36,001 nt of DNA. It comes from Myxococcota bacterium (GTDB lineage Bacteria > Myxococcota > JACRCW01). Made by a program: the position numbers and the translations under genes. Shown here one piece after another: positions 1 to 26,477 of the stretch; within the stretch, counting starts at the first letter, position 1; every line of letters begins with the position of its first letter. The DNA lies in assembly GCA_040752415.1 (NCBI GenBank), contig JBFMGU010000100.1, positions 1 to 36,001 of the forward strand. Direction: 5' to 3'. Below the pieces are notes generated by a model. The model was not told the DNA's origin, searched no databases, and was given only the letters and a program-made list of their open reading frames with translations.

Positions 1-353
1 CGCCCCACCGCGCGCACCGCCTTGGGATTGCCAAGCCGTTCCGCCAGCACGCCGTAGCTGAGCGTTGCGCCGTACGGGATGCGTTGCAGTGCGCTCCACA
101 CCTCGCGCTGGAACGCGGTTCCCTCCGGCGCCACGCGCAGGCTGAACTCCCGACGGGTCCCGCGGAAATACTCGCCCAGCTGCGTCTCCACCTCGAGCCC
201 GGCACTGGCGTCCCATCGCACGCCCACCGCGTCGCGGAGCACTTGGTGCGGCATCCGTCCGTCCAGGAATTCCAGCCGGAGCAGGGCGCCGTTCTCGTCG
301 AGGAGCGCGAGCAACTCGCCGAGCGGGGAGGAGAAGGTGTGGGCGGTGCGCAT
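1..353 (-). CDS. ogt: methylated-DNA--protein-cysteine S-methyltransferase (5' part; runs off the window start)
   Basis: Not in the ORF track. My translation from ATG 353: MRTAHTFSSPLGELLALLDENGALLRLEF...QLGEYFRGTRREFSLRVAPEGTAFQREVWSALQRIPYGATLSYGVLAERLGNPKAVRAVG, the typical Ogt signature. The active-site PCHR lies outside the window. Confidence 0.9.
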   Translation of the reverse strand, partial: MRTAHTFSSPLGELLALLDENGALLRLEFLDGRMPHQVLRDAVGVRWDASAGLEVETQLGEYFRGTRREFSLRVAPEGTAFQREVWSALQRIPYGATLSYGVLAERLGNPKAVRAVG

Positions 354-483
354 GCAGCCCATCCTACAGCGGTTCCCGGTGGAGTTGGCCGTGCCGGAGG
401 GTGAACCTGACACCTGCGAAGCAAGGGCCATCCTTCCCCGGCCGATCTGTTGGGAACCGCCGTAACGCGCCTCCCATGCAAGA

Positions 484-1395
484 TCAGCGGCTGGGATGGG
501 GCAGCCATCCTCGTCGACCACGCCCCACTTCCGGCTGTTCCTTCTCGCCCTTCTCCTTCCCCTCGGGGTGGTAGTGCTCGATCAGCGCATTGATCTCCGA
601 GCCCACCAGCGTCACCAGCCCAGCCAGGTAGAGCCAGAACAACAGGATCACCACGGCGCCCAGCGTCCCGTAGGTGGCGGTGTAGTTGCCGAAGTTGGCG
701 ACGTAGTAGCGGAACGCGAACGAGACGACGCCCAGGGTGATGACGGCGAAGACGCTGCCCGGGGAGATGAAGCGAAATTCCTGTTCCACGTCGGGGCCGA
801 AGTAGTAGGTCAGCGCAAAACCCAACAGCAGCATGCCGAGGATCACCACCCAGCGGAACGCCGCGAAGGCGCCGAGCAGCGGACGGCTCCAACCCAGGTT
901 GTCGGCAATCCACTGCTGCAACACGCCGCCGAAGATGACCAGGCCGAATCCACCCAGCACCAGCAGCACGAACATCACCGTGAGCATCACGGCGGTGCCG
1001 CGCACCTTCCAGAACGGGCGTCCTTCCTTGACGTCGTAGGTGACGTTGAGCTGCTGCATGACGGCGAACAGGCCGTTGGAGGCCGCCCAGATGGTGAGGA
1101 TGAGACCAAAGGACAACAGGCCGCCGCGCTTCTGCGTCACGTCCTGCACCACGCCCTCGAACAGGTCCGCGGCCTCCGTCGGAAGCGCCTGGTGCAGGAG
1201 GTCCATGATGGCCTGGTAGAGGTTGGGAATGGGCAGGTAGGGCAGCGTGCTCAGGAGAAAGATGGCGGCGGGAAAGATGGAAAGCACCAGGTAATAGGCC
1301 AGGGCCGCCGCGCCGTTGGTGACGCGGTCCTCCCGGATTTCCGCGCGCAGGTCCCGGGTGAACTGCCTCAGGGTCACGCCGTTCACAATCTCCAT
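484..1395 (-). CDS. YihY/virulence factor BrkB family inner-membrane protein
   Basis: Start at MEIVNG with GAGG upstream. Contains AAALAYYLVLSIFP, several TM helices and YTATYGTLGAVVILLFWLYL...GSEINA, typical of YihY. Confidence 0.9.
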   Translation of the reverse strand: MEIVNGVTLRQFTRDLRAEIREDRVTNGAAALAYYLVLSIFPAAIFLLSTLPYLPIPNLYQAIMDLLHQALPTEAADLFEGVVQDVTQKRGGLLSFGLILTIWAASNGLFAVMQQLNVTYDVKEGRPFWKVRGTAVMLTVMFVLLVLGGFGLVIFGGVLQQWIADNLGWSRPLLGAFAAFRWVVILGMLLLGFALTYYFGPDVEQEFRFISPGSVFAVITLGVVSFAFRYYVANFGNYTATYGTLGAVVILLFWLYLAGLVTLVGSEINALIEHYHPEGKEKGEKEQPEVGRGRRGWLPHPSR

Positions 1396-1599
1396 GGCGA
1401 CCTCGGTTCGTCCCGGTGGGTTTCCGCTGGCGGATGTAACCGGCGGCCCCGCAGGCACCAGCGTGACGTCGTGTCCAAGACCGCGCGGATGGACGTTGGT
1501 GCTCCGGAACTGGCTCCTGATGCGTGACCCGGGGCGTGGACAGACAGGAGCTCGGCGACGTGGCGGCGGGAGCGCGCGCGCATGTGTTACTGAGAACGC

Positions 1600-2748
1600 A
1601 TGGATGATCGTGCGGTGGCAGCTGCGGCTTCCTTGCGGGAGGCGTTGCAGCACGTGGCCCGGGGCCTCGTCGAGCGGGAGATGCTGGTGGAGCTCATCGC
1701 GTTGGCGGCGGTGGCGGGTGAGCATGCCTTGGTGATTGGCCCGCCGGGCACGGCCAAGAGTGAGGCGGTGCGACGTTTCTCCCGCGCCACCGGCGGTCGC
1801 TACTTCGAGTACCTGCTGGGACGTTTCACCGAGCCCAGCGAGATCTTCGGACCGGTGGACCTGCGTCGTCTGCGCGAGGGTGTCGTCGAGACGGAGACGC
1901 GCGGGATGCTGCCGGAGGCGGAGGTGGCCTTCCTGGACGAGGTGTTCCACGGCTCCACCGCCATCCTGAACACGCTGCTCGGCATCCTCAATGAACGTGT
2001 GTTCAAGCGCGGCCACACCGAGGTGCGCTGCCCGCTGCGGGTCTGCGTGGGCGCCTCCAATGCGCTCCCCTCCGACGAGTCCCTGGCGGCGTTCGCGGAC
2101 CGCTTCCTCGTACGCGCGTTCGTGGAGCCCATTGGTGACCCGCAGCTGGACGAGCTGCTGGAGAGCGGGTGGGCCCTGGAACGCCAGGCGCCGCCGCCCA
2201 CGGCCAGGCTCGAGGACCTCGACGCGTTGACGCGCGCGGCGCGGGACGCGGAGATGACCGGCGTGCGTCCCCACCTGGCCCACGCGGTGCGACGGCTGCG
2301 CAAGGCGGGCGTCACGTTGTCGGATCGTCGCGTGGTGAAGTCGCAGCGGCTGGTGGCGGCGGCGGGCGCGTTGGCGGGACGTTCCGCACCGACGGAAGCG
2401 GACCTCTGGCCCCTGGTCTACGTTGTGCCCACGCGCGAGGAGCAGGCGGTGGCGCGGGAGTGTCTGCGGGACCTGCTGCAGGCTGCGCAGAACCCCACGC
2501 TCGCCGCCGCGGCGGAGGGTGCGTCGTCGTCGCGCGCTTCACGGGCGGAGCGGTTGGCGCGGGTGGGCCGGGAGCTGCTGGGCGCTCGCCCCGTCGACGG
2601 AGATCCCCGTGCCCGGGATGCGTGGCGTCTGCGCCTCGAGGGATTGGCGCGGGAGATCGACGCGGGGTTTGCTCCGGAGGACATGCCGGCGGACGTGGCG
2701 AGCGTGCGTGCGGAGATCGTGCGCGCGGTGCAGGCTGCGAGCGCATGA
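1600..2748 (+). CDS. MoxR/RavA-like AAA+ ATPase
   Basis: Walker A GPPGTAKS, Walker B AFLDE, FEYLLGRFTEPSEIFGP, sensor VGASN, and FADRF. Confidence 0.92.
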   Translation: MDDRAVAAAASLREALQHVARGLVEREMLVELIALAAVAGEHALVIGPPGTAKSEAVRRFSRATGGRYFEYLLGRFTEPSEIFGPVDLRRLREGVVETETRGMLPEAEVAFLDEVFHGSTAILNTLLGILNERVFKRGHTEVRCPLRVCVGASNALPSDESLAAFADRFLVRAFVEPIGDPQLDELLESGWALERQAPPPTARLEDLDALTRAARDAEMTGVRPHLAHAVRRLRKAGVTLSDRRVVKSQRLVAAAGALAGRSAPTEADLWPLVYVVPTREEQAVARECLRDLLQAAQNPTLAAAAEGASSSRASRAERLARVGRELLGARPVDGDPRARDAWRLRLEGLAREIDAGFAPEDMPADVASVRAEIVRAVQAASA

Positions 2749-3176
2749 GCGAGGCCATGACGCCGTCGTGGAGGTTGCGGGAGCGTCCGCTGGCTCCGCT
2801 GGCGGCGGTGGCCGTGGATGGTCTTGCATCACACCTCGCCACGCGGGTCCTCCAGCTCTCCGACGACGAGCTGACCGCGTTGCGCGGCGTGGCCGGCGAG
2901 AACCTGTTGTGTGTCTTGGGCGACGAGAAGCAGCTCCCGTGGATTGACGGCGTGACCTACCTGGGCCGCGACCCTGGCGCGCCCGCGTTGCTGCTCCCCG
3001 TCCATCACGAGCCCACGGTTTCCGTCGAGCTGTTCGAGCGGACGGTGTTGCGTCGTGTCGCGTCGGCGGCCACCCCGCTGGCGGTGCTGCACGCTCCGAC
3101 GCGGATCTGGTCCCTGGCCGCGGCGCGCCCGCTCGAGCGCGGTCGGGTGAAGGCGTGGTTGGAAGGGGGCGCGTGA
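2745..3176 (+). CDS. MoxR-vWA-beta-propeller ternary system protein, bpX5-like
   Basis: ATGA overlap with the ATPase stop. W-R-x-R-x-x-P-L-x-P and LPWIDGVTYLGRDP motifs match my recollection of bpX5 proteins; operon context agrees. Confidence 0.7.
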   Translation: MSEAMTPSWRLRERPLAPLAAVAVDGLASHLATRVLQLSDDELTALRGVAGENLLCVLGDEKQLPWIDGVTYLGRDPGAPALLLPVHHEPTVSVELFERTVLRRVASAATPLAVLHAPTRIWSLAAARPLERGRVKAWLEGGA

Positions 3177-3177
3177 C

Positions 3178-4977
3178 ATGCAGCTCCCTCCCGCGTTGGC
3201 GCCGTGGACCGCGCAGCTCTCCCTGTTTCCCGACGTCACGGCGGTGGCGCTGGGACGCATGGCGCAGCGGTTGGCGCTGGCGGTGGGGCCGTTGAACGCA
3301 CACGACGGGAGCGGCACGGGTGAGCCCGACGGCGTGGACGGGCTGTCCCAACGCGGCAGCTACGAGCGACTGCTGATGAGCGAGTGGTTGCTCGCCCAGG
3401 AGGCTCCCGACGAGTTCGTGCGTCGCGCGGCCGTTGGTGAGCACGTGTTCCTGCGGTTGGCGCGTCGTCGACCTGCGGTGGCACGCGCCACCGTGGCGCT
3501 GTTTGACGCCGGGCCCGAGCAGTTGGGCACGCCGCGCGTGGCGCAGTTGGCCGCGTTGATCGTTCTCTCCCGACGCGCGGAGGCCGCCGGCGCGACATTC
3601 CGTTGGGGCATCCTGCAGCAGCGCGAGACGGTGCTCCAGGAGGGGCTCACCCCGGCGAACGTCACCGACCTGTTGCATGCGCGCACGTCGTCACGCGGAA
3701 CGGAGACGCACCTGGATGCGTGGCGCAGCCGGTTGCGCGCGTTGGGTGGCGTCGAGGAGATGTGGCTGGTGGGTGGGGAGCCGTTGGCGCGGCTGGTGGA
3801 GGGGACCCGCATCCGTCACCTGGAGATCCGCGACGTGCTGGACCCGGTGGCACGCGCGCTGGCCGTCTCCCTGCGCGACGCCCGCACCCCGCGCGAGGTG
3901 GAGCTGGAGCTTCCCGACGACGAGACGTGTGCCCAGCTGCTGCGCGACCCCTTCGTGCAACGGGTGCCCGCCGCGGTGTCCGCGCCTTCGGTGAGCTCCA
4001 ACCTCGTCTTCGCGCACAACCGCACGCGGCTGTTCGCGCGGGTGGAGAGCTCGTCGGTGGTGGGCTTCCGGACCGTGCCCACGTCGGGGAGCGAGGGCGG
4101 AGCACCGGTGACCTACCGCCTCCCGGACCACGGCGTGGTGATGGGCGCGGGCTGGTGGCGGAAGACGGTGCTGCTGGTCTCCCACGGCGTGGAGGGCTTT
4201 GATCACGTCTTCCACCTGCACGAGTTCTCTCCGCGCGGACGCTTGCGCGGTGTTCGCACCTTCCGCATGGACGCGGTGCAGCATCCCGTGGCCATGGTGA
4301 GCGGTCACATCCCGTTGCAGCCGGTGCATGTGCTTCCCTGGTCGCAACACGGTGGGGAGCGTTTCTACGTCCTGGACCCCGCGCGGCGTCTCATCCGCCT
4401 GGAAGGAGACAGCGCCACCGTCGTCGACCCGCAGATCGTCGCGTATGCGCGCTACCCGTCCGGCCTCGTCTACGCGCAGGATCTGGTGCGCGGAGAAGGG
4501 GAGGACGCACACCCCACGCGACTGGTGCTCCTGGGCGCCGGACAGGTGGGTGATGCGGAGACGCGCGTCGACAACCAGGGGCCCGGTTGCTTCTTCGGCT
4601 TTGCAGGGCGGTTGGAGATGTCGCGCTTTGGCCTGGTGGCGCTGGAGTGGACGGACCGACGCTGGGCGGGCGTGGGCGGCCCCGCTCGCGAAACGGTGGT
4701 GATCCCGCGCGGCATGCAGGCGGTGGGCGTGGTGCGCAATCCCAAAGCGCCGCGTGAGATGGCCATCGTGGCGCTCGAGGATGATCGTCGCACCATCTAC
4801 CTCTTCGGCCGCACCACCTCGACGAGACTGCCGCCCGCCATCGGCGAGATCGAGCATGTGGCGCTCAGTACCGCGGCCGCGGAGCTGGCCTACAGCACCG
4901 TCAACGGCGACGTGGTCATCTACGGCCTGGATACCGACGAGCTGCTCATGCTCTCCCGCGCGGAGGTGGCCCGATGA
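3178..4977 (+). CDS. divergent vWA-like domain plus C-terminal beta-propeller-like region (ternary system core component)
   Basis: GEPDGVDGLSQRGSYERLLMSEW segment, then hydrophobic strand plus DAGPEQLG (degenerate MIDAS-like), then a beta-rich C-terminal half. Starts 1 bp after the previous gene. Confidence 0.65.
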   Translation: MQLPPALAPWTAQLSLFPDVTAVALGRMAQRLALAVGPLNAHDGSGTGEPDGVDGLSQRGSYERLLMSEWLLAQEAPDEFVRRAAVGEHVFLRLARRRPAVARATVALFDAGPEQLGTPRVAQLAALIVLSRRAEAAGATFRWGILQQRETVLQEGLTPANVTDLLHARTSSRGTETHLDAWRSRLRALGGVEEMWLVGGEPLARLVEGTRIRHLEIRDVLDPVARALAVSLRDARTPREVELELPDDETCAQLLRDPFVQRVPAAVSAPSVSSNLVFAHNRTRLFARVESSSVVGFRTVPTSGSEGGAPVTYRLPDHGVVMGAGWWRKTVLLVSHGVEGFDHVFHLHEFSPRGRLRGVRTFRMDAVQHPVAMVSGHIPLQPVHVLPWSQHGGERFYVLDPARRLIRLEGDSATVVDPQIVAYARYPSGLVYAQDLVRGEGEDAHPTRLVLLGAGQVGDAETRVDNQGPGCFFGFAGRLEMSRFGLVALEWTDRRWAGVGGPARETVVIPRGMQAVGVVRNPKAPREMAIVALEDDRRTIYLFGRTTSTRLPPAIGEIEHVALSTAAAELAYSTVNGDVVIYGLDTDELLMLSRAEVAR

Positions 4978-16008: not shown

Positions 16009-16662
16009 TCAGCCGCGCGTCAGCAACGCCACCACGTCCGGGTGTCCCTTCTCCCTGGCCAGGTCCGCGGCAGTGCTCCCGTTGTCGGCCTGCAGCGACG
16101 CATCCGCGCCGTGGCGCAACAGCAGGCGAACCCCCTCGACGTCGCCGTGCAGGGCGCGCGCTTGCAGCGGAGTCCATCCGGCTTGCTGTCGGGCGTTGAC
16201 GTTGGCGCCGGCTTTCAGCAGCACCTCCATCACCGCGCGGTGTCCCGCGGAGGCGGCGCTGTGCAGCGGTTGCACCTGCATGGGATTGCGCGCCACGGCG
16301 TGGACGTCCGCACCGTGCTGGAGGAGCACCTCCGCAACCGCCGCACGACCAAAAAACGCGGCGAAGTGCAACGCCGTGAACCCGTCGGGTGAGACGGCCT
16401 TCACCAGCGACGCGTCCTTCCCGACGAGACTGGCGACCCGCGCGGTGTTGCCGAGTGCGGTGGCCTCGAAGACGTCCAGGTCACCACCCGCGGCGAGGAT
16501 GTCCGCCAACTCCCGCTTGCCGTGGTACATCGCGCTCATCACCAGCGACACCCCGGACGCATCGCGCGCCCTCGACAGCGACGGGTCCCTGGTCACCAGG
16601 TCCCTGAGCTTCCCCGCATCTCCCGCCGTGATGGCCTCCAGCGCCGCGGCAACCTCTCCCAT
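16009..16662 (-). CDS. ankyrin-repeat protein
   Basis: DGFTALHFAA, QPLHSAASAGH, GWTPLQ and GADV/GANVNA repeats; GGAGG RBS. Confidence 0.92.
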   Translation of the reverse strand: MGEVAAALEAITAGDAGKLRDLVTRDPSLSRARDASGVSLVMSAMYHGKRELADILAAGGDLDVFEATALGNTARVASLVGKDASLVKAVSPDGFTALHFAAFFGRAAVAEVLLQHGADVHAVARNPMQVQPLHSAASAGHRAVMEVLLKAGANVNARQQAGWTPLQARALHGDVEGVRLLLRHGADASLQADNGSTAADLAREKGHPDVVALLTRG

Positions 16663-16674
16663 GTCTTCCTCCAG

Positions 16675-16695
16675 ATCGTTAGCCATGCTAATGAT
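16675..16695. promoter_or_regulatory. inverted repeat, probable MarR operator
   Basis: ATCgTTAGC-CAT-GCTAAtGAT in the 39-bp gap between the divergent ankyrin and marR genes. Confidence 0.6.
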
Positions 16696-16701
16696 TACGG
16701 G

Positions 16702-17154
16702 GTGACCGCGCGTTCCACAAGCCGCAAGCCATTCCCGCCGCGGGAGATTGCGGACCGGTTGCACTCGGTTTCCATCCGGTTGCTGCGCTGGCTCCGTCGG
16801 GTGGACGCGGCGGCGGGGGTAGGGCCGGCGCGTCTCTCCGCGCTGAGCGTGCTGACCTTTGGTGGTCCCATGACGCTGGGGCAGCTCGCGGCCGCGGAGC
16901 AGGTGAAGCCGCCGACGATGACGCGCGTGGTGCACGGCCTGGAAGCGGAGGGTTTGGCGCAACGCATCCCGGATCCCGCCGACGGCCGTGTGGTGCGCGT
17001 GGCGGCCACCGCGGCGGGGAAGCGCCTGCTGCAGCAGGGACGTCGACGTCGCGTGGAGGTGTTGAACCGCCGCGTGAAGGAACTGCCCGCCGCGGAGCTG
17101 GCCACGCTGGAGCGTGCGGTGGAGATCCTGGAGCGCATGACGCGGGGCGGCTGA
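16702..17154 (+). CDS. MarR family transcriptional regulator
   Basis: GTG start; MTLGQLAAAEQVKPPTMTRVVHGLEAEGL...DPADGR winged HTH. Confidence 0.9.
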   Translation: MTARSTSRKPFPPREIADRLHSVSIRLLRWLRRVDAAAGVGPARLSALSVLTFGGPMTLGQLAAAEQVKPPTMTRVVHGLEAEGLAQRIPDPADGRVVRVAATAAGKRLLQQGRRRRVEVLNRRVKELPAAELATLERAVEILERMTRGG

Positions 17155-17348
17155 CGTCCTGGACCACGTTCGCGTCCAGCGCGGACGGGACGGTGGCTCA
17201 GCAACGGGCCAGACCAGGGATCACGAGGTCAAGGCGAAACGTCGCCGCCCCGTGAACGTGACGTCCTCGTCGAGGATTCAGGTTGCGCGCTGCCGCGTCC
17301 CGGCATCCCGGTTACCTCCAGCCACAACATTCTCGTCGGAGCTTGGCC

Positions 17349-18005
17349 ATGAAGGTGGTGCTCGGGATCGTGGTGTTGGTGCTGGTGATCGCGGGTGCGG
17401 TGGCGGTGGTCGACGCGCAGGGAACCTGGGGGCCCGGGAATCTGCACAACCAGCTCCAGGGCGTGGACCCCGTGGGACCCCAGGATGCCGAGGAGTCGCC
17501 CCGCCCCGTGACGCCGCAACTCAGCGCGGAGCCACCCGTTCCGGGTCCCACCAGGAACCTGCCTGGCGTTGACCGTCGGTTCCTGACGCGCGCCATCACC
17601 CAGAGCGACCGCGTGGAAGCGCTCAGCCGGATGATGCTCGACCACGACGTCAGCAATGAGGTGAAAGGCCTGGCGCAGAGCGTGATGGAGAGTCACATGC
17701 TGATCGGCGGGCGGTTGCGCACCATCGCGTCCCAGGGACGTGTCCCGCTCCGTGAGCCCGTCCTGCCGACGCCGGAGATGAAGCGCCTCGCGCGGCTCCA
17801 GGGTGAACGCCTGGAGCGTGAGTACCTCGAGACGGTGATCCGGGCACATCGTCGGGCCGCGGCCAGCTTCCAGCGACACATCACAGCCGCGCGGGATCCC
17901 GACGTGCGCCACGTGGCGGCCATGTCGCTGCCCATCCTGCAGACGAACCTGAGCGAGGCGATCCGACTGCGCAACCAGGTCCGTCGGGAGGGCGCGGGTG
18001 GGTGA
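17349..18005 (+). CDS. DUF4142-like (ferritin-like) secreted protein
   Basis: Signal peptide; DRRFLTRA, EVKGLAQSVMESH, YLETVIRAH and LPILQTNL pattern. Confidence 0.7.
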   Translation: MKVVLGIVVLVLVIAGAVAVVDAQGTWGPGNLHNQLQGVDPVGPQDAEESPRPVTPQLSAEPPVPGPTRNLPGVDRRFLTRAITQSDRVEALSRMMLDHDVSNEVKGLAQSVMESHMLIGGRLRTIASQGRVPLREPVLPTPEMKRLARLQGERLEREYLETVIRAHRRAAASFQRHITAARDPDVRHVAAMSLPILQTNLSEAIRLRNQVRREGAGG

Positions 18006-18362: not shown

Positions 18363-19118
18363 ATGGCTGACAACGACATCGTCTTCATCACGGGTGCAAC
18401 CTCAGGCTTCGGTGAGGCGTGCGCGCGGGCCTTTGCCGCACAGGGCGCCCGCTTGGTGCTCACCGGTCGACGAGAGGAACGCCTGCGCGCCCTGAAAGCG
18501 GAGCTGAAGACGCAGGTCCACACCGTGGTGCTGGACGTGCGCGACAACGCCGCGGTGGAGCGCGCGGTGAAGGACCTCCCGCGGGAATTCTCCGACGTCA
18601 CCATCCTGCTCAACAACGCCGGCCTGGCACTGGGATTGGGGCCCGCGCACAAGGTGAGCCTGCAGGACTGGGAGACCATGGTGGACACCAACATCAAGGG
18701 TGTCCTCTACGTCACGCGCGCGTTGCTGCCCGGCATGGTGGAGCGCAACCGCGGTCACATCATCAACCTGGGCAGCGTGGCGGGGACGTATCCCTATCCC
18801 GGCGGCAACGTGTATGGCGCCACCAAGGCGTTCCTGCACCAGTTCACCATGAACCTGAAGGCCGACCTCGTCGGGACGCGCGTGCGCGTGACCACCATCG
18901 AGCCGGGAATGGCTGAGACGGAGTTCTCCCTGGTGCGCTTTGGTGGCGACGCGGAGAAGGCGAGGGCCGTCTACCAGGGCATGCAGCCGCTCACGCCGCA
19001 GGACATTGCCGACGCCGTGCTGTGGTGCGCGACGCGGCCCGCGCACGTGAACATCAACGCCATCGAGATCATGCCGGTGGCCCAGGGCTTCAGTCCCTTT
19101 GCCGTGCATCGCGGTTGA
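18363..19118 (+). CDS. NADP-dependent SDR, YdfG-like
   Basis: ITGATSGFG, NNAGLALG, YPGGNVYGATK, IEPGMAETEFSLVRF and PAHVNIN. Confidence 0.9.
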   Translation: MADNDIVFITGATSGFGEACARAFAAQGARLVLTGRREERLRALKAELKTQVHTVVLDVRDNAAVERAVKDLPREFSDVTILLNNAGLALGLGPAHKVSLQDWETMVDTNIKGVLYVTRALLPGMVERNRGHIINLGSVAGTYPYPGGNVYGATKAFLHQFTMNLKADLVGTRVRVTTIEPGMAETEFSLVRFGGDAEKARAVYQGMQPLTPQDIADAVLWCATRPAHVNINAIEIMPVAQGFSPFAVHRG

Positions 19119-19158
19119 CGCTCCGCGCGCCTTGGCGGTCGTTGTGAGCCACCTTCTG

Positions 19159-19200
19159 ACTCCTGACTTCCTTGTGGGGTTTCCCCGACAATCCAGGAGT
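19159..19200. terminator. hairpin between the convergent SDR and radical SAM genes
   Basis: ACTCCTG...TTGT-GGGG-TTT-CCCC-G-ACAA...CAGGAGT; GAAA loop on the minus strand directly after the rSAM stop; no clear U-tract. Confidence 0.4.
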
Positions 19201-19203
19201 TGT

Positions 19204-20568
19204 TCAGGCAATGACGTGGAGACGCTTGCGTGAAGGTCGCTCCGACGGGTCGACGGTGCAGTCGGCCCACGGATCCGGCTCGTTCAACGTCCTCCCCGCG
19301 CCCGTGGCCCGCGCCCGACACCCGCCGCCGCAGACCGTGAAGTTCTCGCAGGAGCCGCACTGGTCATTGCCGGTGAACGTGCGCCAGGAGCGGATGGTCG
19401 GCGCCTCACGCCAGCACGACGTGAACGAGTGGGCGTGCAGCGACCAATCCTGCGGATCCAGCACGAAACCACAGGAGACCACGCGCCCGTCGTACATCAC
19501 GGAAGCGCTGGTGGTGCCGCCCACGCAGCCGAACGGCGGAATGATCCCCGCCCACTCCGGCGTGCGCGTGGGGATTCCGTCACCCCATTGCGCGGGTGGA
19601 CCGTCGGACGGCCACGCGGCCTTGGCGCGCTCCATGGCCCGCAGGTAGCTGAGCCGGTCAATGTAGAGCCCGTCCGCGTGCTGCGCTGCGCCCGTCTCCG
19701 TCTGGCGGAACGGCTTGAACGCCACGCGCGTGACGCCGAGCTCGCGTCCTAGCGTCGCATAGTCGCCCAGCCGGTCCGCGTTTCCCGACGTCACGGTGAC
19801 GCGGAACTGCACATCCTTCGCACCCGCCGCACGCAACAGCCGGATGCCACGCAGCGCCTGCTCGAAGCGGCCCGCACCGCGGATGGTGTCGTGGGTTGGA
19901 GCGTCGGGGCCATCCAACGAGATGGAGTATTCCCGGATGGGTGAGGCCGCCAGGCGCGCCGCGTTCTCCTCGGTGATGAGCGTGCCGTTGGTGCACAGCG
20001 ACGCATCCAGCCCATGGCGGCCCACACCCGCGACGAGCTCCCAGAAGTCGCGACGCAACATCGGCTCACCGCCCGCCAGCACCACGACGGGAGAGCCCAA
20101 GGTCTCCAGCTCGGCGAACAGGGAGAGCATCTGCGCGGTGCTCAGCTCATGCGGGTCGGGCTTGGGCGTGATGTCGACGAAGCAGTGGGTGCAGCGCAGG
20201 TTGCAGGCGCGCGTGAGCTGGATGTGCGTGATGAGCGGGCCGGTGAGCGCGGCGTGGGAGCCGTTGTGGTGCAACACGCGGGCGTGACAGCGGAATCCCT
20301 CGTCGAGCATGCCGTCGTGCAGCAGGCCTTCGATGTCGCGGATGAGCGTCTCCTCGTCCACGTCGTAGCCCTTGGGGTCACGGGCGTAGGCCTCCAGCGC
20401 GTTCCCACGCGTGGCGTCGAGAAGCAGGCGGGTCAGGTGGGGCGGGAGGAGGGCAAAGCGAGCGGTGCGACGGTGGTAGTAGAGGGAGCCGAAGTGCTCG
20501 ATGCGGAGCAGGTCCCCCGGTTGCGCGGCACTCTCCGACGACAGAATCGGGGACGCCGCGGCCACCAT
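19204..20568 (-). CDS. radical SAM/SPASM enzyme with fused N-terminal RRE (MftB/PqqD-like) domain
   Basis: CNLRCTHC (CX3CX2C), GGEP, LCTNG and SISLDG; SPASM CVGG...DGRVVSC and CGSCENFTVCGGGCRA...DPWADC. N-terminal LRIEHFGSLYYH resembles the MftB motif LRPEPFGALLYH. Start overlaps the upstream stop (TGATG). Confidence 0.92.
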   Translation of the reverse strand: MVAAASPILSSESAAQPGDLLRIEHFGSLYYHRRTARFALLPPHLTRLLLDATRGNALEAYARDPKGYDVDEETLIRDIEGLLHDGMLDEGFRCHARVLHHNGSHAALTGPLITHIQLTRACNLRCTHCFVDITPKPDPHELSTAQMLSLFAELETLGSPVVVLAGGEPMLRRDFWELVAGVGRHGLDASLCTNGTLITEENAARLAASPIREYSISLDGPDAPTHDTIRGAGRFEQALRGIRLLRAAGAKDVQFRVTVTSGNADRLGDYATLGRELGVTRVAFKPFRQTETGAAQHADGLYIDRLSYLRAMERAKAAWPSDGPPAQWGDGIPTRTPEWAGIIPPFGCVGGTTSASVMYDGRVVSCGFVLDPQDWSLHAHSFTSCWREAPTIRSWRTFTGNDQCGSCENFTVCGGGCRARATGAGRTLNEPDPWADCTVDPSERPSRKRLHVIA

Positions 20569-21113
20569 CACCCGCAACCACCGCTGGAGCGGCTGTAGCT
20601 GGGCGCGGGACGCGGCTTGGCGTCCTCGATCTGCTGGCGCGCGCCCTTGAGGGCCTCCTGCGCCAGCGTGCCGGCCAGGTCGTCGGCGGGCTTGGCCAGC
20701 GCGGCCTTCTCCTCCTTCTCGGAGATGACGCCGTCCTTGCCTTTGGTGCCGTCGGCCTTGTGCGTGTCAAAGCCGGCCACGCGCTTCTTGGCCTCCATCA
20801 GCGCCTCGCGCACGTTCTTGACCTCACCCTTCTTCAGCAGCTCCGGCTCGACGGTGCGTGTGGCTGAGTAGCCGCTGCAGCCACTGCTCACCCAGTAGGA
20901 CTCGGTGCGGGAGAACTCGTCCTTCACCGCTTCCAGGGCCTTGGTGGTCCCCACGTCCTTGCCCTTCACCTCCGCGGTGACGTCGAGCCGGCGCTCCAGC
21001 TCATCAACCGAGACCTGCCCTTTGTCGTCGACGGCCTTCTCCAGCGCCTTGTCCAGGCGGTCCAGGCTCTTCTCGAGGTTCTGGGGCGTGATCTTCCCAC
21101 CAATGCGCGTCAT
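20568..21113 (-). CDS. putative radical SAM substrate/precursor protein with two SYxxSSG(G)C motifs
   Basis: 181 aa, Lys/Glu-rich and helical, GGAG RBS, GC3-rich codons. Motifs ESYWVSSGCSGYS (internal) and PSYSRSSGGCG (C-terminus). Coupled to the rSAM gene. Confidence 0.75.
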   Translation of the reverse strand: MTRIGGKITPQNLEKSLDRLDKALEKAVDDKGQVSVDELERRLDVTAEVKGKDVGTTKALEAVKDEFSRTESYWVSSGCSGYSATRTVEPELLKKGEVKNVREALMEAKKRVAGFDTHKADGTKGKDGVISEKEEKAALAKPADDLAGTLAQEALKGARQQIEDAKPRPAPSYSRSSGGCG

Positions 21114-21195
21114 CTGAGGGCTCCAGGCAAGGCCCGCACGGGGCCGGACCGTCGTCGACTAGCCCACGGAAAAACGGATGGCAAAGCGCGGCGCG

Positions 21196-22266
21196 TCAAG
21201 GCCGGTAGAACCAGATGTTGGCGCCCCGACCCACGGCCCACGCGCCGCCTGGCTGGTGCGCCCAGACGCCACGCAGGTCCTCGTCGGAGGGCGAGATGAT
21301 GTCGCTCCATTCCCCGCCGTTGAAATGCACCACCCGCCCGTACTCGCCCACCGCCCACACGTCATTCACCGCGGTGCCGTCGACGTCGTGGAGGCGGTAG
21401 GTGGTGCCGGGCGGCGTCACCGTGCTCCACGCGCTGCCGTCCCAGTGGCGCAGCGTGCCGTCGCCGCCCGCGGCCCACACGTCGGCGTCGCTGGTGCCCC
21501 ACGCGTCCCACATCTCCACGTCGTCGACGCCGGCGGAACGATCCTGCCACCCGGACCCATCCTGGAACCACGCCACGCGATCACCGACGACCCACACGCT
21601 GCCCGCCGGGGAAACCCACAGCCCGCGCAGGTGCGCCGTGCCGGGGACGCCGCCGGGATTCCACGTCGTGCCGTGGCCGCGGAGGCTCAGTCCGTTGGAG
21701 CCGACGATCCACACGTCATCACGCGTCACGGCGCGCACGCGGTAGAGATCGCGCGTGTCCACCTCGGTGAGCGTGGTGTCGGTGCCGTTCCAGTGCGCCA
21801 CCTTCCCGCCAATGCCCACGGCCCACACGTCGTCGGAGGCGGTGCCGTGCACGTCAAAGAGCAGCGCCGGGACCAGGTCCACCACCTGCCACTGGCGTCC
21901 GTCGTAGCGAACCAGGTGACCCATCTCGCTCACCGTCCACGCCTCATTCGCGGTGCGGCCCCAGATCGCGTTCAGGCGACCCGAGCCCGTGGGTTGCTGG
22001 GTGCGGCACCAGGAGCGACGGTCACAGATGACCTGCGGTCCGTTGTCGTCGGGAGCAATGCCCGCGTCGGTGCCGGGGAGGAAGGGGAGGGTGGGCGCAT
22101 TGCCCGGCGTGGGCAGCGCGGGGTTGATGGGCTCACACACTCCTGACTGGCAGGCGTAGCCCGGCAGACAATCAAGCTGCGTGCGACACGCGTAGCGCTC
22201 CGTCAGATTGAACAGGCACCCCGCGAGCGCACCCACGCCGACGACGAAGAGCAGGCGCCTCCTCAT
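21196..22266 (-). CDS. lipoprotein with small Cys-rich module and beta-propeller (repeated W-G/DVWAVG blades)
   Basis: Lipobox LAGC; CRTQLDCLPGYACQSGVC; repeats such as DVHGTASDDVWAVG and AWGTSDADVWAAG. Confidence 0.8.
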   Translation of the reverse strand: MRRRLLFVVGVGALAGCLFNLTERYACRTQLDCLPGYACQSGVCEPINPALPTPGNAPTLPFLPGTDAGIAPDDNGPQVICDRRSWCRTQQPTGSGRLNAIWGRTANEAWTVSEMGHLVRYDGRQWQVVDLVPALLFDVHGTASDDVWAVGIGGKVAHWNGTDTTLTEVDTRDLYRVRAVTRDDVWIVGSNGLSLRGHGTTWNPGGVPGTAHLRGLWVSPAGSVWVVGDRVAWFQDGSGWQDRSAGVDDVEMWDAWGTSDADVWAAGGDGTLRHWDGSAWSTVTPPGTTYRLHDVDGTAVNDVWAVGEYGRVVHFNGGEWSDIISPSDEDLRGVWAHQPGGAWAVGRGANIWFYRP

Positions 22267-23078
22267 GGCAACACCCACGAGAGCACCATGAGCACCACCG
22301 GCGGGACGATCAACACCACCGCCAGCCCCAATCCCAACACCACCGACGCCACCACCACGTTCGCCACGAAGGCCTGCGTCTGCGTCACCGCGTGCACGCC
22401 GTTGCGCGTGTTCACCAGGTCATAGGCCAGCAGGCCCACCGCGGCGGTGCCCAACGCCGCCGACGTCACCAGGCCCAGGATCGGCGGAGCCACGCCCAAC
22501 ACGCCCAGGCCGCGCAGCGTTCCGCGGGCACCCGTCTTCCACCCCGGTTCGCCCGCGGACTCGTCGGAGCGCGGGGCAGCAGATGGTGGTGGCGTCGTCA
22601 CCGGGCTGGAGCCCAGCAGCTCTTCGGCAATCCCGGGCATGGCGCGCAGCAGCTCCTCCGGCGTGCCGTGCGGAAACTCGCGCTGGATGCGTTTGAGCGC
22701 GTGTGCATCCCGTGACCGGACCCGCGAGAGCGTGACGACGTAGGAATCACCCACACGCCCCACGTTCCCGACGACGATCTGGTCGGCTGCCAGCGCCCCG
22801 GCAATCTCCAACGCGCAACTCTCGGTGCTGCATCCCGCGGCTTGACGTTGCTGCTCCAGCGTGAGCGCGGCGCTGACCTCGCTGACGGCCTGCACCGTGA
22901 AGTCGGCGTGGCGGCTGGCGGCAATGGCCAGTGCGCCGGTGAGCTGCTCGGCAAGATCCGGGGTGACGTTGCCCCGCGCCTCGAGCGGGAAGATCAACAC
23001 CGAAGCGGGCCGCGACGCCGCGCCGGCGTTGAGCGCGAGCATGACCGGGGTGAGGGCGAGGACGACGACGGGTGACAT
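22263..23078 (-). CDS. exported protein with TolB-N/CsgG-like alpha/beta domain and C-terminal TM helices
   Basis: Signal peptide; GCSTESCALEIAGALAADQIVVGNVGRVGDSYVVTLSRV; two hydrophobic C-terminal segments; ATGA overlap with the next gene. Confidence 0.6.
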   Translation of the reverse strand: MSPVVVLALTPVMLALNAGAASRPASVLIFPLEARGNVTPDLAEQLTGALAIAASRHADFTVQAVSEVSAALTLEQQRQAAGCSTESCALEIAGALAADQIVVGNVGRVGDSYVVTLSRVRSRDAHALKRIQREFPHGTPEELLRAMPGIAEELLGSSPVTTPPPSAAPRSDESAGEPGWKTGARGTLRGLGVLGVAPPILGLVTSAALGTAAVGLLAYDLVNTRNGVHAVTQTQAFVANVVVASVVLGLGLAVVLIVPPVVLMVLSWVLP

Positions 23079-23176: not shown

Positions 23177-23545
23177 ATGCTCCGCGCCTTGGCGGTCCTG
23201 GTGATGGCCCTGATGTCGGTTCCCGCGCTCGCGGGCCCGGCGTGGCAGTGCCTTTGCGAGGGCGCGCCGGTGGCGTGGGAACCCTGCTGCTGCGACCACG
23301 ACGAGCCCGCGGACCCCACCATCTCCGACGGCTGCTGCTGCGAGATCCAACAAGGCGCTCCAGACACCTCGCAGTCGCCTGCCACGTTCGAGCGAACCAC
23401 GGTGTCGCCCGTCTGGTATCCGGCCACCGAGCCCCGCGTGATCGTGACCGCCGCGCCGGTCCAGGATGGTCGACCGGTGATCCTGCGTGACACCGGGCCA
23501 CCACCACCCACGCAGTTCCTGAGCACCGTCAAGCTGCGTCCCTAG
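23177..23545 (+). CDS. small Cys-rich protein upstream of the metal-efflux operon (DUF2946-like leader candidate)
   Basis: Hydrophobic N-terminus, CLC, CCCDH and GCCC clusters, C-terminal RDTGPPPP. Confidence 0.65.
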   Translation: MLRALAVLVMALMSVPALAGPAWQCLCEGAPVAWEPCCCDHDEPADPTISDGCCCEIQQGAPDTSQSPATFERTTVSPVWYPATEPRVIVTAAPVQDGRPVILRDTGPPPPTQFLSTVKLRP

Positions 23546-23610
23546 CGCTCCGGTTGAGGCGTAAGTCCTGACGCGTTCGCGCGTCCTCACCTCGAAACCG
23601 GAGTTTTCCA

Positions 23611-24969
23611 ATGTATCGATCGTTGAGCCTGGCAGCGCTGCTGCTGGCGGCGGAGCCTCCGTCGTCGGCGGGTGGGCTGTCCTTCACCGACGCGCGTGAA
23701 CGTGCGCGTCAAACCCATCCCGCCATCCTCTCCTCACGCCTGGCCGCGCAGGCGGCGCGTGAACGCGTGAACGGAACCGGAGCCTGGGACGACCCCGTCG
23801 TGGGAGCGCAGCTCTGGCAGATCCCATTGGACAACGTGGAGAACGCGCTGGTGCCTGGCCTCACGCCGGCGCAACGCGCCACCACCGTCGCCATGGGGCC
23901 GTCCATGGTCAACGTCATGCTCATGGCACAGCAGACCTTCCCGTGGCCGGGCAAGCGCTTCGCGCAACGGAATGAGGCCGGCGCGTTGGCGGAGCAGGCT
24001 GCAGCGTCAACGGAGGTGATGCGCGCCGACGTGGACCGCGCCGTGGCGTACGCGTACGGCGACCTCATTGCCGCGCAAGGGTCCATTGCCGTGCTGGAGC
24101 AGGACCGCACCGTGCTGGAGACGCTGGTGGCCCTCTCCGACTCTCGCCTGGCGAGCGGCAGCGGCAGTCGCGTGGATGCGTTGGCGGCGCGCGCGGAGCT
24201 GGAGGGGCTGCAGCGTGAGCTGATTGACGTGCGACAAGCGGTCCGCACCGCCAAGGCGCGCCTGGCCGCGCTCATCGGCGCCGATGGCCCCGACGCCGTT
24301 CCCGACGCTGCACACACCTTCCTGATCCGTCCGTTGCCTCCGCGCGAGGAGCTGCTGGCCAGGGCGCTGACGCAGCGACCCGAGTCGCGCATTGCCGCGG
24401 CGGGTGTGCGGGCCGCGTTGGCGCGTCTCTCCCAGGCCCGCATGGCCATGATTCCCGACGTCACCGCCAACGTCTCGTACATGATCGGCGTGGGCGGACC
24501 CGGCGACTACGCGAAGCACGGAGCGGTGCACACCATCCTGGGCCCGCCCGACATGGTCACCGTGGGGGTGGCGGTTCCGCTGCCGGTGCTGGCGCCGTGG
24601 AAGCAGATGCCGCAGGCGGATGCCGCGCGTGTCGAGCACAAGCGTGCGCAGGCCGAGGCCGACGCGATTGCGCGCACCGTGCAGGCGGAGGTGGACCAGG
24701 CGCTCGCGGGTGTCGACATGGCACGCAGTCACCTGGAGCTGCATTCCACGCGGCTCATCCCGCTGGATATCGCGGGCGTCGACGCGGCGCGCGCGGCCTA
24801 TGAGTCCGGACAGGGAAGCCTGGTGGATCTCGTCGTGGCGGGGCGTTCCCTGCGGGGGCATCACCTGGAGAGCCAGACCGCACTGCTGCAGTACGCGCGC
24901 TACGTGGCCGACCTGGAGCGTGCCACCGGCGTACCCCTCAACGCTTTTGGAGAAGGAGGCACGCCATGA
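23611..24969 (+). CDS. cusC: TolC-family outer membrane factor (CusC/CzcC-like)
   Basis: QQTFPWPGKR, RPE, PDV and AAYESGQGSLVDLV OEP motifs; first gene of the CBA operon. Confidence 0.8.
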   Translation: MYRSLSLAALLLAAEPPSSAGGLSFTDARERARQTHPAILSSRLAAQAARERVNGTGAWDDPVVGAQLWQIPLDNVENALVPGLTPAQRATTVAMGPSMVNVMLMAQQTFPWPGKRFAQRNEAGALAEQAAASTEVMRADVDRAVAYAYGDLIAAQGSIAVLEQDRTVLETLVALSDSRLASGSGSRVDALAARAELEGLQRELIDVRQAVRTAKARLAALIGADGPDAVPDAAHTFLIRPLPPREELLARALTQRPESRIAAAGVRAALARLSQARMAMIPDVTANVSYMIGVGGPGDYAKHGAVHTILGPPDMVTVGVAVPLPVLAPWKQMPQADAARVEHKRAQAEADAIARTVQAEVDQALAGVDMARSHLELHSTRLIPLDIAGVDAARAAYESGQGSLVDLVVAGRSLRGHHLESQTALLQYARYVADLERATGVPLNAFGEGGTP

Positions 24970-26477
24970 CCACGCACGACGTTCATCACCCCGATGCCAT
25001 GCCCGAGGGCGAGGAGCCACCTCCTCCCGGCGTGAAGATCATGGCCGTGGTGCGCTGGGTGCTGATCCTGGCGCTGGGTGCGCTGGCGGTTCACGTCGTC
25101 ATGGACGCGGTGCGGGAGCACGGTTCCGTCGAGAAGGCGGAGCACAAGACGCGTTACACCTGTCCCATGCACCCGCAGGTCATCTCCGACCGTCCCGGAG
25201 AGTGTCCCATCTGCGGCATGGATCTCGTTCCGCTCGAGGAGAAGCCCAAGGTGGAGGAGGCGGAGCTCTACCAGTGCCCCATGCATCCGCAGGTCACCTC
25301 GAATCGTCCCGGAGAGTGTCCCATCTGCGGCATGGACCTCGTGAAGGTGGAGAAGGCCGCGGGCAAGGCGCACGGTGAAACGGCGGTACCGGGTTTGTCG
25401 ACGGTGACCATCCCGCTGGAGCGCGTGCAACGCATTGGCGTGCGCTCCGCGCCGGCCCAGGTGGCGACGCTGTCCGAGACGGTGCGCACGGTAGGCGTGG
25501 TGGCCACGAATGAGGCGAAGACGGCGCAGGTGCATGCCCGCTACTCCGGTTGGATCGAGGAGCTGCTGGTGCGTGAGACCGGTGCACGCGTGGAGGCCGG
25601 TGAGCCGCTGGCGCGCATCTACAGCCCGGAGGTGCTGCAGGCGCAGCAGGAATACGTCACTGCGCTGCAGGCCAATCCCAACGACCCTCTCTCGGGCCAC
25701 CTGGTGTCCGCGGCTCAACAACGTCTCAAGCTGCTCGGCCTCCCCACCGACGATCTCGAGACGTTGGAGCGCGACAAAAGGCCGCAACGCACCATCACCA
25801 TCCGCGCGCCCATGGCCGGTTACGTGACACAGAAGGGCGCGGTGGAGGGTCTGTATCTCTCGCCGGGAACTCCGTTGTTCGAGATCGCGGATCTCTCGTC
25901 GGTGTGGATGCTCATTGACGTGCGTGAGGACCAGATGGCGCGCGTGCAGGTGGGGCAGAAGGCCAGCGTGGAGATTCCCGCGCTGCCGGGCCAGCGGTTC
26001 GAGGGGAAGCTCACCTTCCTCTATCCGGCCGTGGACCCGCGGACCCGCACGCTGCGTGCCCGGGTGGAGATGCCCAATCCTCGTCGACAGCTTCGACCCG
26101 GCATGTACGGCGACGTGAACATCACGCTCCCGCCGGCCAAGGGCGTGGTGGTGCCCGCGGAGTCGGTGGTGCAGACCGGTCGGCAGGCGTACGCGTTCAT
26201 CTCCCACGGAGATGGCGTGTTCGAGCCGCGCCTGGTGACGTTGGGCGTGCGCACCCCGGATACCGTGCAGGTCCTCTCCGGCGTCGAGCCCGACGAGGAG
26301 GTGGTGACCAGCGCCATCTTCCTCATTGACTCGGAGAGCCGCCTGCGCGCCGCGATCAACGGAAGCCCGGTGGGTGGAGCGCACGCGGGTCATGGTGGTC
26401 ACGAGGGACACGCCGAGTCGCAGCCGTCGTCGCAACCGTCGTCGCAGCCGGCGCACCAGCACGGGGGGACGCCATGA
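24966..26477 (+). CDS. cusB: CusB-like periplasmic adaptor with two YxCPMHP heavy-metal-binding domains and His-rich termini
   Basis: YTCPMHP...CPICGMDL occurs twice; GWIEEL, IYSPE, DPRTRT, LRPGMY and FLIDSES. Confidence 0.9.
   Translation: MTTHDVHHPDAMPEGEEPPPPGVKIMAVVRWVLILALGALAVHVVMDAVREHGSVEKAEHKTRYTCPMHPQVISDRPGECPICGMDLVPLEEKPKVEEAELYQCPMHPQVTSNRPGECPICGMDLVKVEKAAGKAHGETAVPGLSTVTIPLERVQRIGVRSAPAQVATLSETVRTVGVVATNEAKTAQVHARYSGWIEELLVRETGARVEAGEPLARIYSPEVLQAQQEYVTALQANPNDPLSGHLVSAAQQRLKLLGLPTDDLETLERDKRPQRTITIRAPMAGYVTQKGAVEGLYLSPGTPLFEIADLSSVWMLIDVREDQMARVQVGQKASVEIPALPGQRFEGKLTFLYPAVDPRTRTLRARVEMPNPRRQLRPGMYGDVNITLPPAKGVVVPAESVVQTGRQAYAFISHGDGVFEPRLVTLGVRTPDTVQVLSGVEPDEEVVTSAIFLIDSESRLRAAINGSPVGGAHAGHGGHEGHAESQPSSQPSSQPAHQHGGTP

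Follow-up and report, generated by a model that had tools for sequence, protein, structure and literature searches.

Enzymes that combine a RiPP (peptide made by ribosomes and modified after translation) recognition element, or RRE, with a radical S-adenosylmethionine (SAM) core and a SPASM domain are known almost only as producers of small modified peptides. The cases involving whole proteins are few: QhpC and, since 2026, CrpA. Here, we describe a pair of genes at positions 19,204 to 21,113 of a 36,001-nucleotide stretch of DNA from a Myxococcota bacterium (the window), in which the gene for such an enzyme overlaps that of a 181-residue protein, referred to below as the partner. The window is contig C3 of an 11.0-Mb genome in 520 contigs with ≈69% G+C. 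The pair works like a RiPP maturase pair, but one for a folded protein, and is a member of no named family tested. We lean towards the reading that it is a dedicated pair in which the enzyme modifies V-S-S/T-G-C motifs of the partner, most likely by forming a thioether, and in which the protein stays intact.

The nearest relatives of the enzyme by sequence are MftC and MftB, in the catalytic and the N-terminal domain, respectively. MftC is likewise a radical SAM/SPASM enzyme and acts on the last residue of MftA; in both systems, the target would thus be C-terminal, or nearly so, in the product of a neighboring gene. However, the chaperone MftB is a separate protein there and is fused to the enzyme here, and the enzyme misses the MftC cut-off. 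MftA is a peptide of ≈30 residues that ends in Val-Tyr, whereas the neighbor here is folded, 150–330 residues long and ends in Cys. Mycofactocin also differs in its gene content: no MftD-, MftE- or MftF-type genes are conserved near the pair, for which the partner family is the sole conserved neighbor. The best whole-length structural match is SuiB, the maturase of the Lys-Trp bond in streptide (PDB 5V1T), which has the same order of three domains. SuiB is only 18% identical, however, and makes a C–C crosslink in a short peptide, as opposed to a protein with Cys motifs. CteB, PapB and SkfB share the seven-Cys SPASM pattern and have Cys-containing substrates, but their family models score far below cut-off, and their substrates are short leader–core peptides with defined acceptors.

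Two systems with protein-sized products are described in PMC13692751. QhpD, an RRE-using radical SAM/SPASM enzyme, forms thioether crosslinks on Cys residues of QhpC, which remains a protein (PMC13692751). QhpC is the small subunit of quinohemoprotein amine dehydrogenase; the partner described here is unrelated to it and has only two Cys, there are no adjacent dehydrogenase subunits, and the QhpD model is far from its cut-off. In the second system, CrpC introduces ranthionine crosslinks into the archaeal Cys-rich protein CrpA. As proposed for the present pair, the substrate is protein-sized and encoded next to an enzyme with a fused RRE, and the Cys motifs are repeated, as in the sister family described below. 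According to that paper, Cys makes up at least 10% of CrpA, whose repeats have the form C-x-x-Q/D, and ten repeats are given for it; the partner is ≈1% Cys, and CrpC belongs to TIGR04463, which lies outside the 25 best of 80 families for our enzyme. We found no description of the pair in a literature search that covered few subscription journals, and among the papers listed, none with “radical SAM” also had “EF-hand”.

An earlier note on this DNA had proposed an undescribed class of enzyme acting on a folded, protein-sized substrate. The folded partner and the absence of a named family uphold that proposal; the protein-sized product as such is no novelty, as RRE-type radical SAM/SPASM enzymes have precedents for it in QhpD/QhpC and CrpC/CrpA (PMC13692751). 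We regard as quite possible, if short of likely, an undescribed protein-level system, with its own sister family, in which an MftB/MftC-related enzyme would introduce a new Cys-derived modification, be it an intraprotein crosslink, a reactive group or a cofactor, into the V-S-S/T-G-C motif at the hairpin tip and at the very last residue of an EF-hand-type protein; this protein would stay inside the cell, in contrast to a secreted peptide.

Organization of the gene pair

Both open reading frames (ORFs) of the two-gene unit, including the TGATG overlap reported earlier, were found at the expected positions. The main features are as follows.

20571..21113, minus strand: partner gene; 181 residues, unannotated family, helical domain with a β-hairpin, presumed substrate
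20871..20891, minus strand: hairpin-tip motif V75-S-S-G-C79-S-G81, with the Cys79 codon at 20877–20879 (from alignment and model)
20712..20774, minus strand: EF-hand-like loop region, residues 114–134; degenerate, interrupted by an insertion where relatives have Dx[DN]GDG (from alignment)
20571..20588, minus strand: S-S-G-G-C180-G181, motif of the C-terminal tail, which is modeled with low confidence and probably disordered
20566..20570, minus strand: TGATG stop/start overlap (from sequence)
19207..20568, minus strand: radical SAM/SPASM enzyme gene (ORF; Pfam Radical_SAM)
20299..20523, minus strand: N-terminal RRE-like domain, residues 16–90 (from model secondary structure, SuiB superposition and a weak MftB match)
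20182..20205, minus strand: CX3CX2C motif (C122, C126, C129), invariant in the orthologs and in a second alignment
19258..19527, minus strand: SPASM domain with seven conserved Cys (ortholog alignment; TIGR04085 above cut-off)

The partner gene begins with an ATG that has a GGAG 9 nt upstream and ends with a TGA at 20568–20570. The A of this stop codon is also the A of the enzyme ATG (GGGTGATGG), from which the enzyme has 454 residues, with its stop at 19204–19206. An alternative TTG start at 20577 would give an enzyme of 457 residues. Downstream of the pair lies a convergent gene for a short-chain dehydrogenase/reductase. A scan of 19000–21400 found no promoters or terminators.

Architecture of the enzyme

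The enzyme has the two hallmarks of the radical SAM superfamily, a CX3CX2C motif and a core domain matched by Pfam PF04055 (Radical_SAM; residues 119–262, 93.9 bits against a cut-off of 29.5). Conservation of the Cys residues was counted on those 56 of the 61 orthologs that have at least 420 residues. C122, C126 and C129 of the CX3CX2C motif were invariant, while C348, C366, C404, C407, C413, C417 and C437 of the SPASM domain, spaced C-x12-G-x4-C ... CX2CX5CX3C ... C, were 98–100% conserved. The NCBIfam SPASM model TIGR04085 placed the enzyme in the SPASM subgroup, defined by a C-terminal seven-Cys domain for two auxiliary clusters, with 40.6 bits (cut-off 27); the Pfam SPASM model PF13186 remained below threshold (16.5 versus 21.5).

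The AlphaFold model of the enzyme, built from 54 sequences, had a pLDDT (predicted score in the local distance difference test) of 91.9 and a predicted template modeling (pTM) score of 0.90. Its N-terminal domain consists of strands 20–24, 27–32 and 37–41, followed by helices 43–52, 57–63/65–68 and 72–84; three strands and then three helices, N-terminal to the catalytic domain, is the structural pattern of an RRE. Superposition on SuiB with VIA (Z 31.9, root-mean-square deviation 3.7, 394 residues aligned, 18% identity) extended over residues 16–437 of the model and 5–439 of the SuiB chain, and thus included the N-terminal recognition domain. SkfB was the second structural match (VIA Z 29.8, model residues 17–422) and the best sequence match in the PDB (E 7.9e-17), whereas PqqE, anSME (Z 24.9) and CteB matched the catalytic part, with VIA Z of 24–25. 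The Foldseek match of the enzyme model had an E of 2.4e-19. By sequence, the only family match to the N-terminal 107 residues was MftB (TIGR03967; E 0.0015, with 18.8 of the 33 bits required), which also weakly matched 3 of 10 other N-terminal domains. There was no Pfam match to this domain at E ≤ 10, and its profile retrieved only chance-level rows from the PDB sequences (Erlin, E ≈ 0.1). Since the domain models, the conserved Cys and the SuiB superposition agree, the enzyme has the architecture of the peptide maturases: an RRE, a radical SAM core and a SPASM domain. The motifs and the fused, MftB-resembling N-terminal domain described in the earlier note are all present, the last with the weak match just given.

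No named radical SAM enzyme family among the NCBIfam models reached its cut-off. The top bit score was that of AhbD (180.6 bits, cut-off 500), which matched mainly residues 120–303; the best full-length family match was MftC (TIGR03962; 157.6 bits, cut-off 265, residues 110–441). TIGR04053 scored 142.1 (395), NirJ2 141.7 (500), NirJ 122.1 (515.45), AhbC 117.5 (650) and PqqE 81.1 (381). An assignment to the non-peptide families NirJ, AhbC or AhbD, which would have spoken against the earlier proposal, therefore fails. The window’s own genome has no match above the MftC cut-off; the two genes that come closest to it are those of this enzyme and of a paralog on contig C51. A scan of genome contigs with the enzyme gave one unrelated radical SAM gene, 35% identical over residues 115–261.

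The orthologs form a sharply bounded family of 61 clusters at 350 bits or more (42–65% identity), with the next match at 193 bits. Their source names are generic, apart from a single automatic JGI label that reads “MftC”, and the names of the homologs point to Myxococcota and “Deltaproteobacteria”.

The partner protein and its cysteine motifs

The partner matched no family in Pfam or NCBIfam, in line with the earlier statement that the upstream gene resembles no known precursor. A word-indexed search found one relative only. With a profile run against 1.84 billion representatives, the number of proteins rose to 155 at E ≤ 0.001, of which 94 had E ≤ 1e-10 and 56 had E ≤ 1e-30; their usual length is ≈300 residues. 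The AlphaFold2 model, built from 55 sequences, had a pLDDT of 92.7 and a pTM of 0.84, which supports a folded, protein-sized partner, as had been supposed, rather than a short peptide. It consists of helices 10–27, 36–42 and 54–66, a β-hairpin (69–77/80–88), helices 95–113, 132–140 and 146–165, and a tail from residue ≈166 of low confidence (pLDDT 53–74). Foldseek found nothing in the PDB at E ≤ 0.001, and a wide VIA search gave generic helical matches only (best Z 5.4), none of them a clear match to a solved structure; apart from weak EF-hand-like rows, no fold assignment emerged. No signal peptide was found.

The weak, multi-stretch matches of the partner profile are to EF-hand proteins. Pfam EF-hand models matched 9 of 55 family members, the window’s own protein not among them; compared in the alignment with the relatives and their Dx[DN]GDG loop, its own loop is interrupted by inserted residues. 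Comparison of the profile with lanmodulin and calmodulin loops gave weak matches (E 0.0025–0.02), and a protein-atlas query with a long-form partner returned only EF-hand-type leads, below 0.9. The partner represents a real protein family with a helical domain that is EF-hand-like in the relatives, and the EF-hand loop of these relatives, taken by itself, may suggest a calcium-dependent role.

The earlier note had missed two features of the partner, a Cys at the tip of the hairpin and the C-terminal Cys that accompanies it, as well as the paralogous system with repeated motifs described below. Cys79 is invariant in all nine aligned partners and, in the model, sits in a two-residue turn (Gly78-Cys79) between strands 69–77 and 80–88. 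Across the family, 67 of the 80 members that cover this column have the hairpin Cys (65 aligned and 2 displaced by one column). A Cys among the last three residues occurs in 57 of these 67, compared to 0 of the 13 members that lack the hairpin Cys. In 45 of 55 tallied sequences the terminal Cys is the very last residue; in the other 10 it is followed by G, S or PG, and the window’s own partner (C180-G181) belongs to the latter group. The residues preceding the two Cys are alike, with V at −4, S/T at −3, S/G at −2 and G/S at −1, giving both a V-S-S/T-G-C context. The short member P0163 has the motif twice at its end. P0123, P0130 and P0137 have two matched stretches and three Cys (at ≈74, at ≈231 and as the last residue), suggestive of a tandem duplication of the hairpin domain in which each copy has its own Cys.

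Conservation of the pair

Among 61 related genomes, full-length enzyme orthologs (38–48% identity) were found at eight further loci. The partner adjoins seven of these, upstream on the same strand in L018, L019, L020, L024 and L025 and divergently in L021 and L023. In a sample of 401 genomes from the phylum, matches were found in 14, one of which (G142) was too fragmented to judge adjacency; in three that were new, G150, G072 and G233, the enzyme gene is again directly adjacent to that of the partner. At all three metagenome loci, which were found by a scan with a narrower alignment, the enzyme gene starts just after that of the partner. Altogether, the partner is adjacent at 11 of the 12 genome loci with an enzyme ortholog. 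Conversely, the enzyme is adjacent in 14 of 14 cases in which a Cys-bearing partner has enough flanking sequence, with the partner upstream on the same strand in 12 and divergent in two. One genome, G002, has three separate pairs.

Because the pair recurs at 11 of 12 genome and 3 of 3 metagenome loci, its recurrence is more than chance, and the co-occurrence expected from the earlier proposal is thus confirmed. ORF clustering across the loci revealed no other conserved neighbor; in particular, the pair has neither a peptidase nor a transporter as a conserved companion, which extends to the other loci what had been noted for the window. The one full-length paralog examined that lacks both Cys (G034:C24) is not accompanied by a radical SAM gene, and four genomes that have only relatives of the C-terminal domain of the long form have no enzyme ortholog. 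Pairwise distances of enzymes and partners are correlated (r 0.69, 12 pairs; reached in 0 of 5000 permutations), which indicates co-inheritance and no more, because related genomes are not independent.

Two of the loci have peculiarities of their own. The enzyme ortholog at L023 (G003:C28:4470–5750) has one in-frame TAG, which could be a sequencing error or the mark of a decaying copy; its divergent partner has an extra N-terminal domain of ≈75 residues in common with that at L021. At L022 (G003:C203), an ORF of more than 1600 residues (2–4852, plus strand) with protein-kinase and WD40-like parts lies upstream of the enzyme gene. The paralogous enzymes at L028 and L029 likewise have kinase or WD40 ORFs next to them, which may be chance in kinase-rich genomes.

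A sister system with repeated motifs

The enzyme has paralogs of 30–34% identity with the same N-terminal domain. In all four strong cases (contig C51 of the window’s own genome, G001, G002 and G003), a shorter, partner-like gene lies directly downstream of the paralogous enzyme. Its product, a homolog of the partner by hhalign (probability 95.3%, E 2.3e-8), retains the Cys-bearing segment together with a canonical EF-hand loop. The tail of the sister proteins is rich in Pro, Ser and Thr and contains from 1 to 6 P-V-S-T-G-C units, the number of which varies by locus, with an end of ...GC. The pair in the window’s own genome (G000:C51:12604–14534; locus L026, 4363–6293, minus strand) comprises an enzyme 33% identical to the one described here and a 188-residue EF-hand protein with six V-S-T-G-C-type motifs, the last of them at the C-terminus. 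Short Cys motifs in varying copy number are typical of multi-site substrates of such enzymes, CrpA with its ten repeats being an example (PMC13692751).

Proposed nature of the modification

That the partner is the substrate and the Cys motif the site of modification we infer from the conserved linkage of the genes, the recognition domain fused to the enzyme, the strict co-occurrence of that enzyme with the Cys motifs, and the repeats in the sister family. The RRE-like domain, radical SAM core and SPASM domain of the enzyme would recognize the neighboring soluble, folded helical protein, and 5′-deoxyadenosyl-radical chemistry would then modify the V-S-S/T-G-C motifs at the exposed hairpin tip (Cys79) and at the flexible C-terminal end (Cys180). 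Both of these elements should be able to reach into a buried active site. In the manner of sactipeptide and ranthipeptide synthases, the first auxiliary cluster would bind the substrate Cys through an open iron, and the sulfur of this Cys would become part of a thioether. We favor a thioether because RRE-bearing SPASM enzymes form this bond with Cys-containing substrates, and because seven rather than eight SPASM Cys are conserved; in CteB, seven SPASM Cys leave an iron free for the substrate Cys. The lack of a conserved peptidase or exporter, and of a signal peptide in the partner, makes it probable that the modified protein stays intact and in the cytoplasm. A predicted complex of the enzyme and the partner with SAM and three clusters (score 0.01, mark 0.32) gave no verdict, and was used neither way.

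Several observations weigh against this proposal. The models of the thioether maturases StsB (127.2 bits, cut-off 625), PapB (61.4, cut-off 340) and QhpD (61.3, cut-off 453) all stay below cut-off, and the nearest relatives, MftC, AhbD and NirJ, perform oxidative decarboxylation or propionate chemistry and form no thioether. A crosslink would lack a conserved acceptor at constant spacing to the Cys: the residues at −3 and −4 are variable, with Gly in some members, and downstream of the C-terminal Cys there is nothing to which a bond could be made. That the first auxiliary cluster has an open site is deduced only from the count of seven conserved SPASM Cys and the analogy with CteB, and the enzyme has a further conserved Cys, C192. 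The partners at L018 and L025 have no C-terminal Cys, and the enzyme ortholog at L022 has no partner nearby, on a contig that ends ≈1.4 kb after the enzyme gene.

With the same pair of genes, the Cys itself could instead be oxidized, either by an MftC-like decarboxylation to an aminovinyl-thiol or by an anSME-like conversion to formylglycine or dehydroalanine; either route could leave the protein with a reactive group or with the precursor of a cofactor. We consider this unlikely, yet a serious rival, because of the chemistry of the nearest relatives and the strict position of the Cys as last residue. MftC is the best full-length family match and MftB the sole match of the N-terminal domain, and the two best MftC-like genes of the genome, neither above cut-off, are the enzyme and its paralog. 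The Cys at the very end of 45 of 55 sequences suggests that a free carboxylate matters, and AhbD and NirJ, the other top matches, also act next to carboxylates; the lack of a conserved acceptor residue and the structural similarity to anSME would fit as well. However, the invariant Cys is the internal one in the hairpin, which has no free carboxylate, and the sister family has internal copies of the motif. Furthermore, the terminal Cys is followed by other residues in 10 of 55 sequences, that of the window included, the MftC cut-off is missed by more than 100 bits, and neither an MftA-like peptide nor any other mycofactocin gene is adjacent. It is less probable still that the neighbor is an accessory protein, such as a calcium-sensing regulator, a chaperone or a carrier of iron–sulfur clusters or sulfur, and that the true substrate is encoded elsewhere or is a small molecule. 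The partner is well folded, unlike classical leader–core peptides, its relatives have an EF-hand loop typical of sensors, and the thiols of its two Cys, both on flexible elements, would allow it to carry a persulfide or a metal. On the other hand, the 1 to 6 motif copies in the sister family fit a multi-site substrate and not a regulator, the known role of an RRE, to which the fused domain is similar, is to hold the substrate, and no other conserved neighbor is available as one. We consider it very improbable that the enzyme acts on tetrapyrroles, like AhbD or NirJ, and that its adjacency to a 181-residue gene is meaningless. While AhbD has the top score, followed by NirJ2, NirJ and AhbC, all are far below cut-offs of 500–650, and the AhbD match is confined mainly to residues 120–303. 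The AhbD and NirJ models do not explain the N-terminal RRE-like domain, no heme-pathway genes are adjacent, and the adjacency of the partner is kept at 11 of the 12 genome loci.

We also considered a glycyl radical at the Gly-Cys of the hairpin tip, and rejected it. The motif differs from the glycyl-radical finger motif, R-V-x-G-Y, the activases have no SPASM domain or RRE, and the motif described here is repeated in disordered tails.

Other genes in the window

Upstream of the pair, 82 bp away and on the same strand, are two overlapping, unannotated genes (21196–23078, minus strand). One of them encodes a protein of 360 residues that begins like a lipoprotein and has repeats of the W-A-V-G type; the product of the other has 271 residues and a signal-peptide-like start. 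Neither matched Pfam or NCBIfam, and neither is conserved at the other loci. Beyond them is an operon of the heavy-metal efflux type (23177–26477, plus strand), which is not conserved next to the pair elsewhere. It comprises a Cys-rich protein of 122 residues with a signal peptide and no Pfam match, a TolC-like outer membrane protein (OEP, 136.7 bits) and an adaptor resembling CusB, in which there are two heavy-metal-binding domains. On the other side of the pair, an ankyrin-repeat protein (minus strand), a MarR-family regulator (plus strand) and a DUF4142 protein (plus strand) are encoded within 16012–18005, with no evident link to the pair.

Significance of the pair

A screen based on Cys content, such as that in PMC13692751, would not pick up the partner, because it is only ≈1% Cys. 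With 61 enzyme clusters, at least 94 partner representatives, two genes and a clear predicted site, the pair offers a tractable system for a new protein modification, and it could show how an RRE-bearing enzyme handles a folded substrate.

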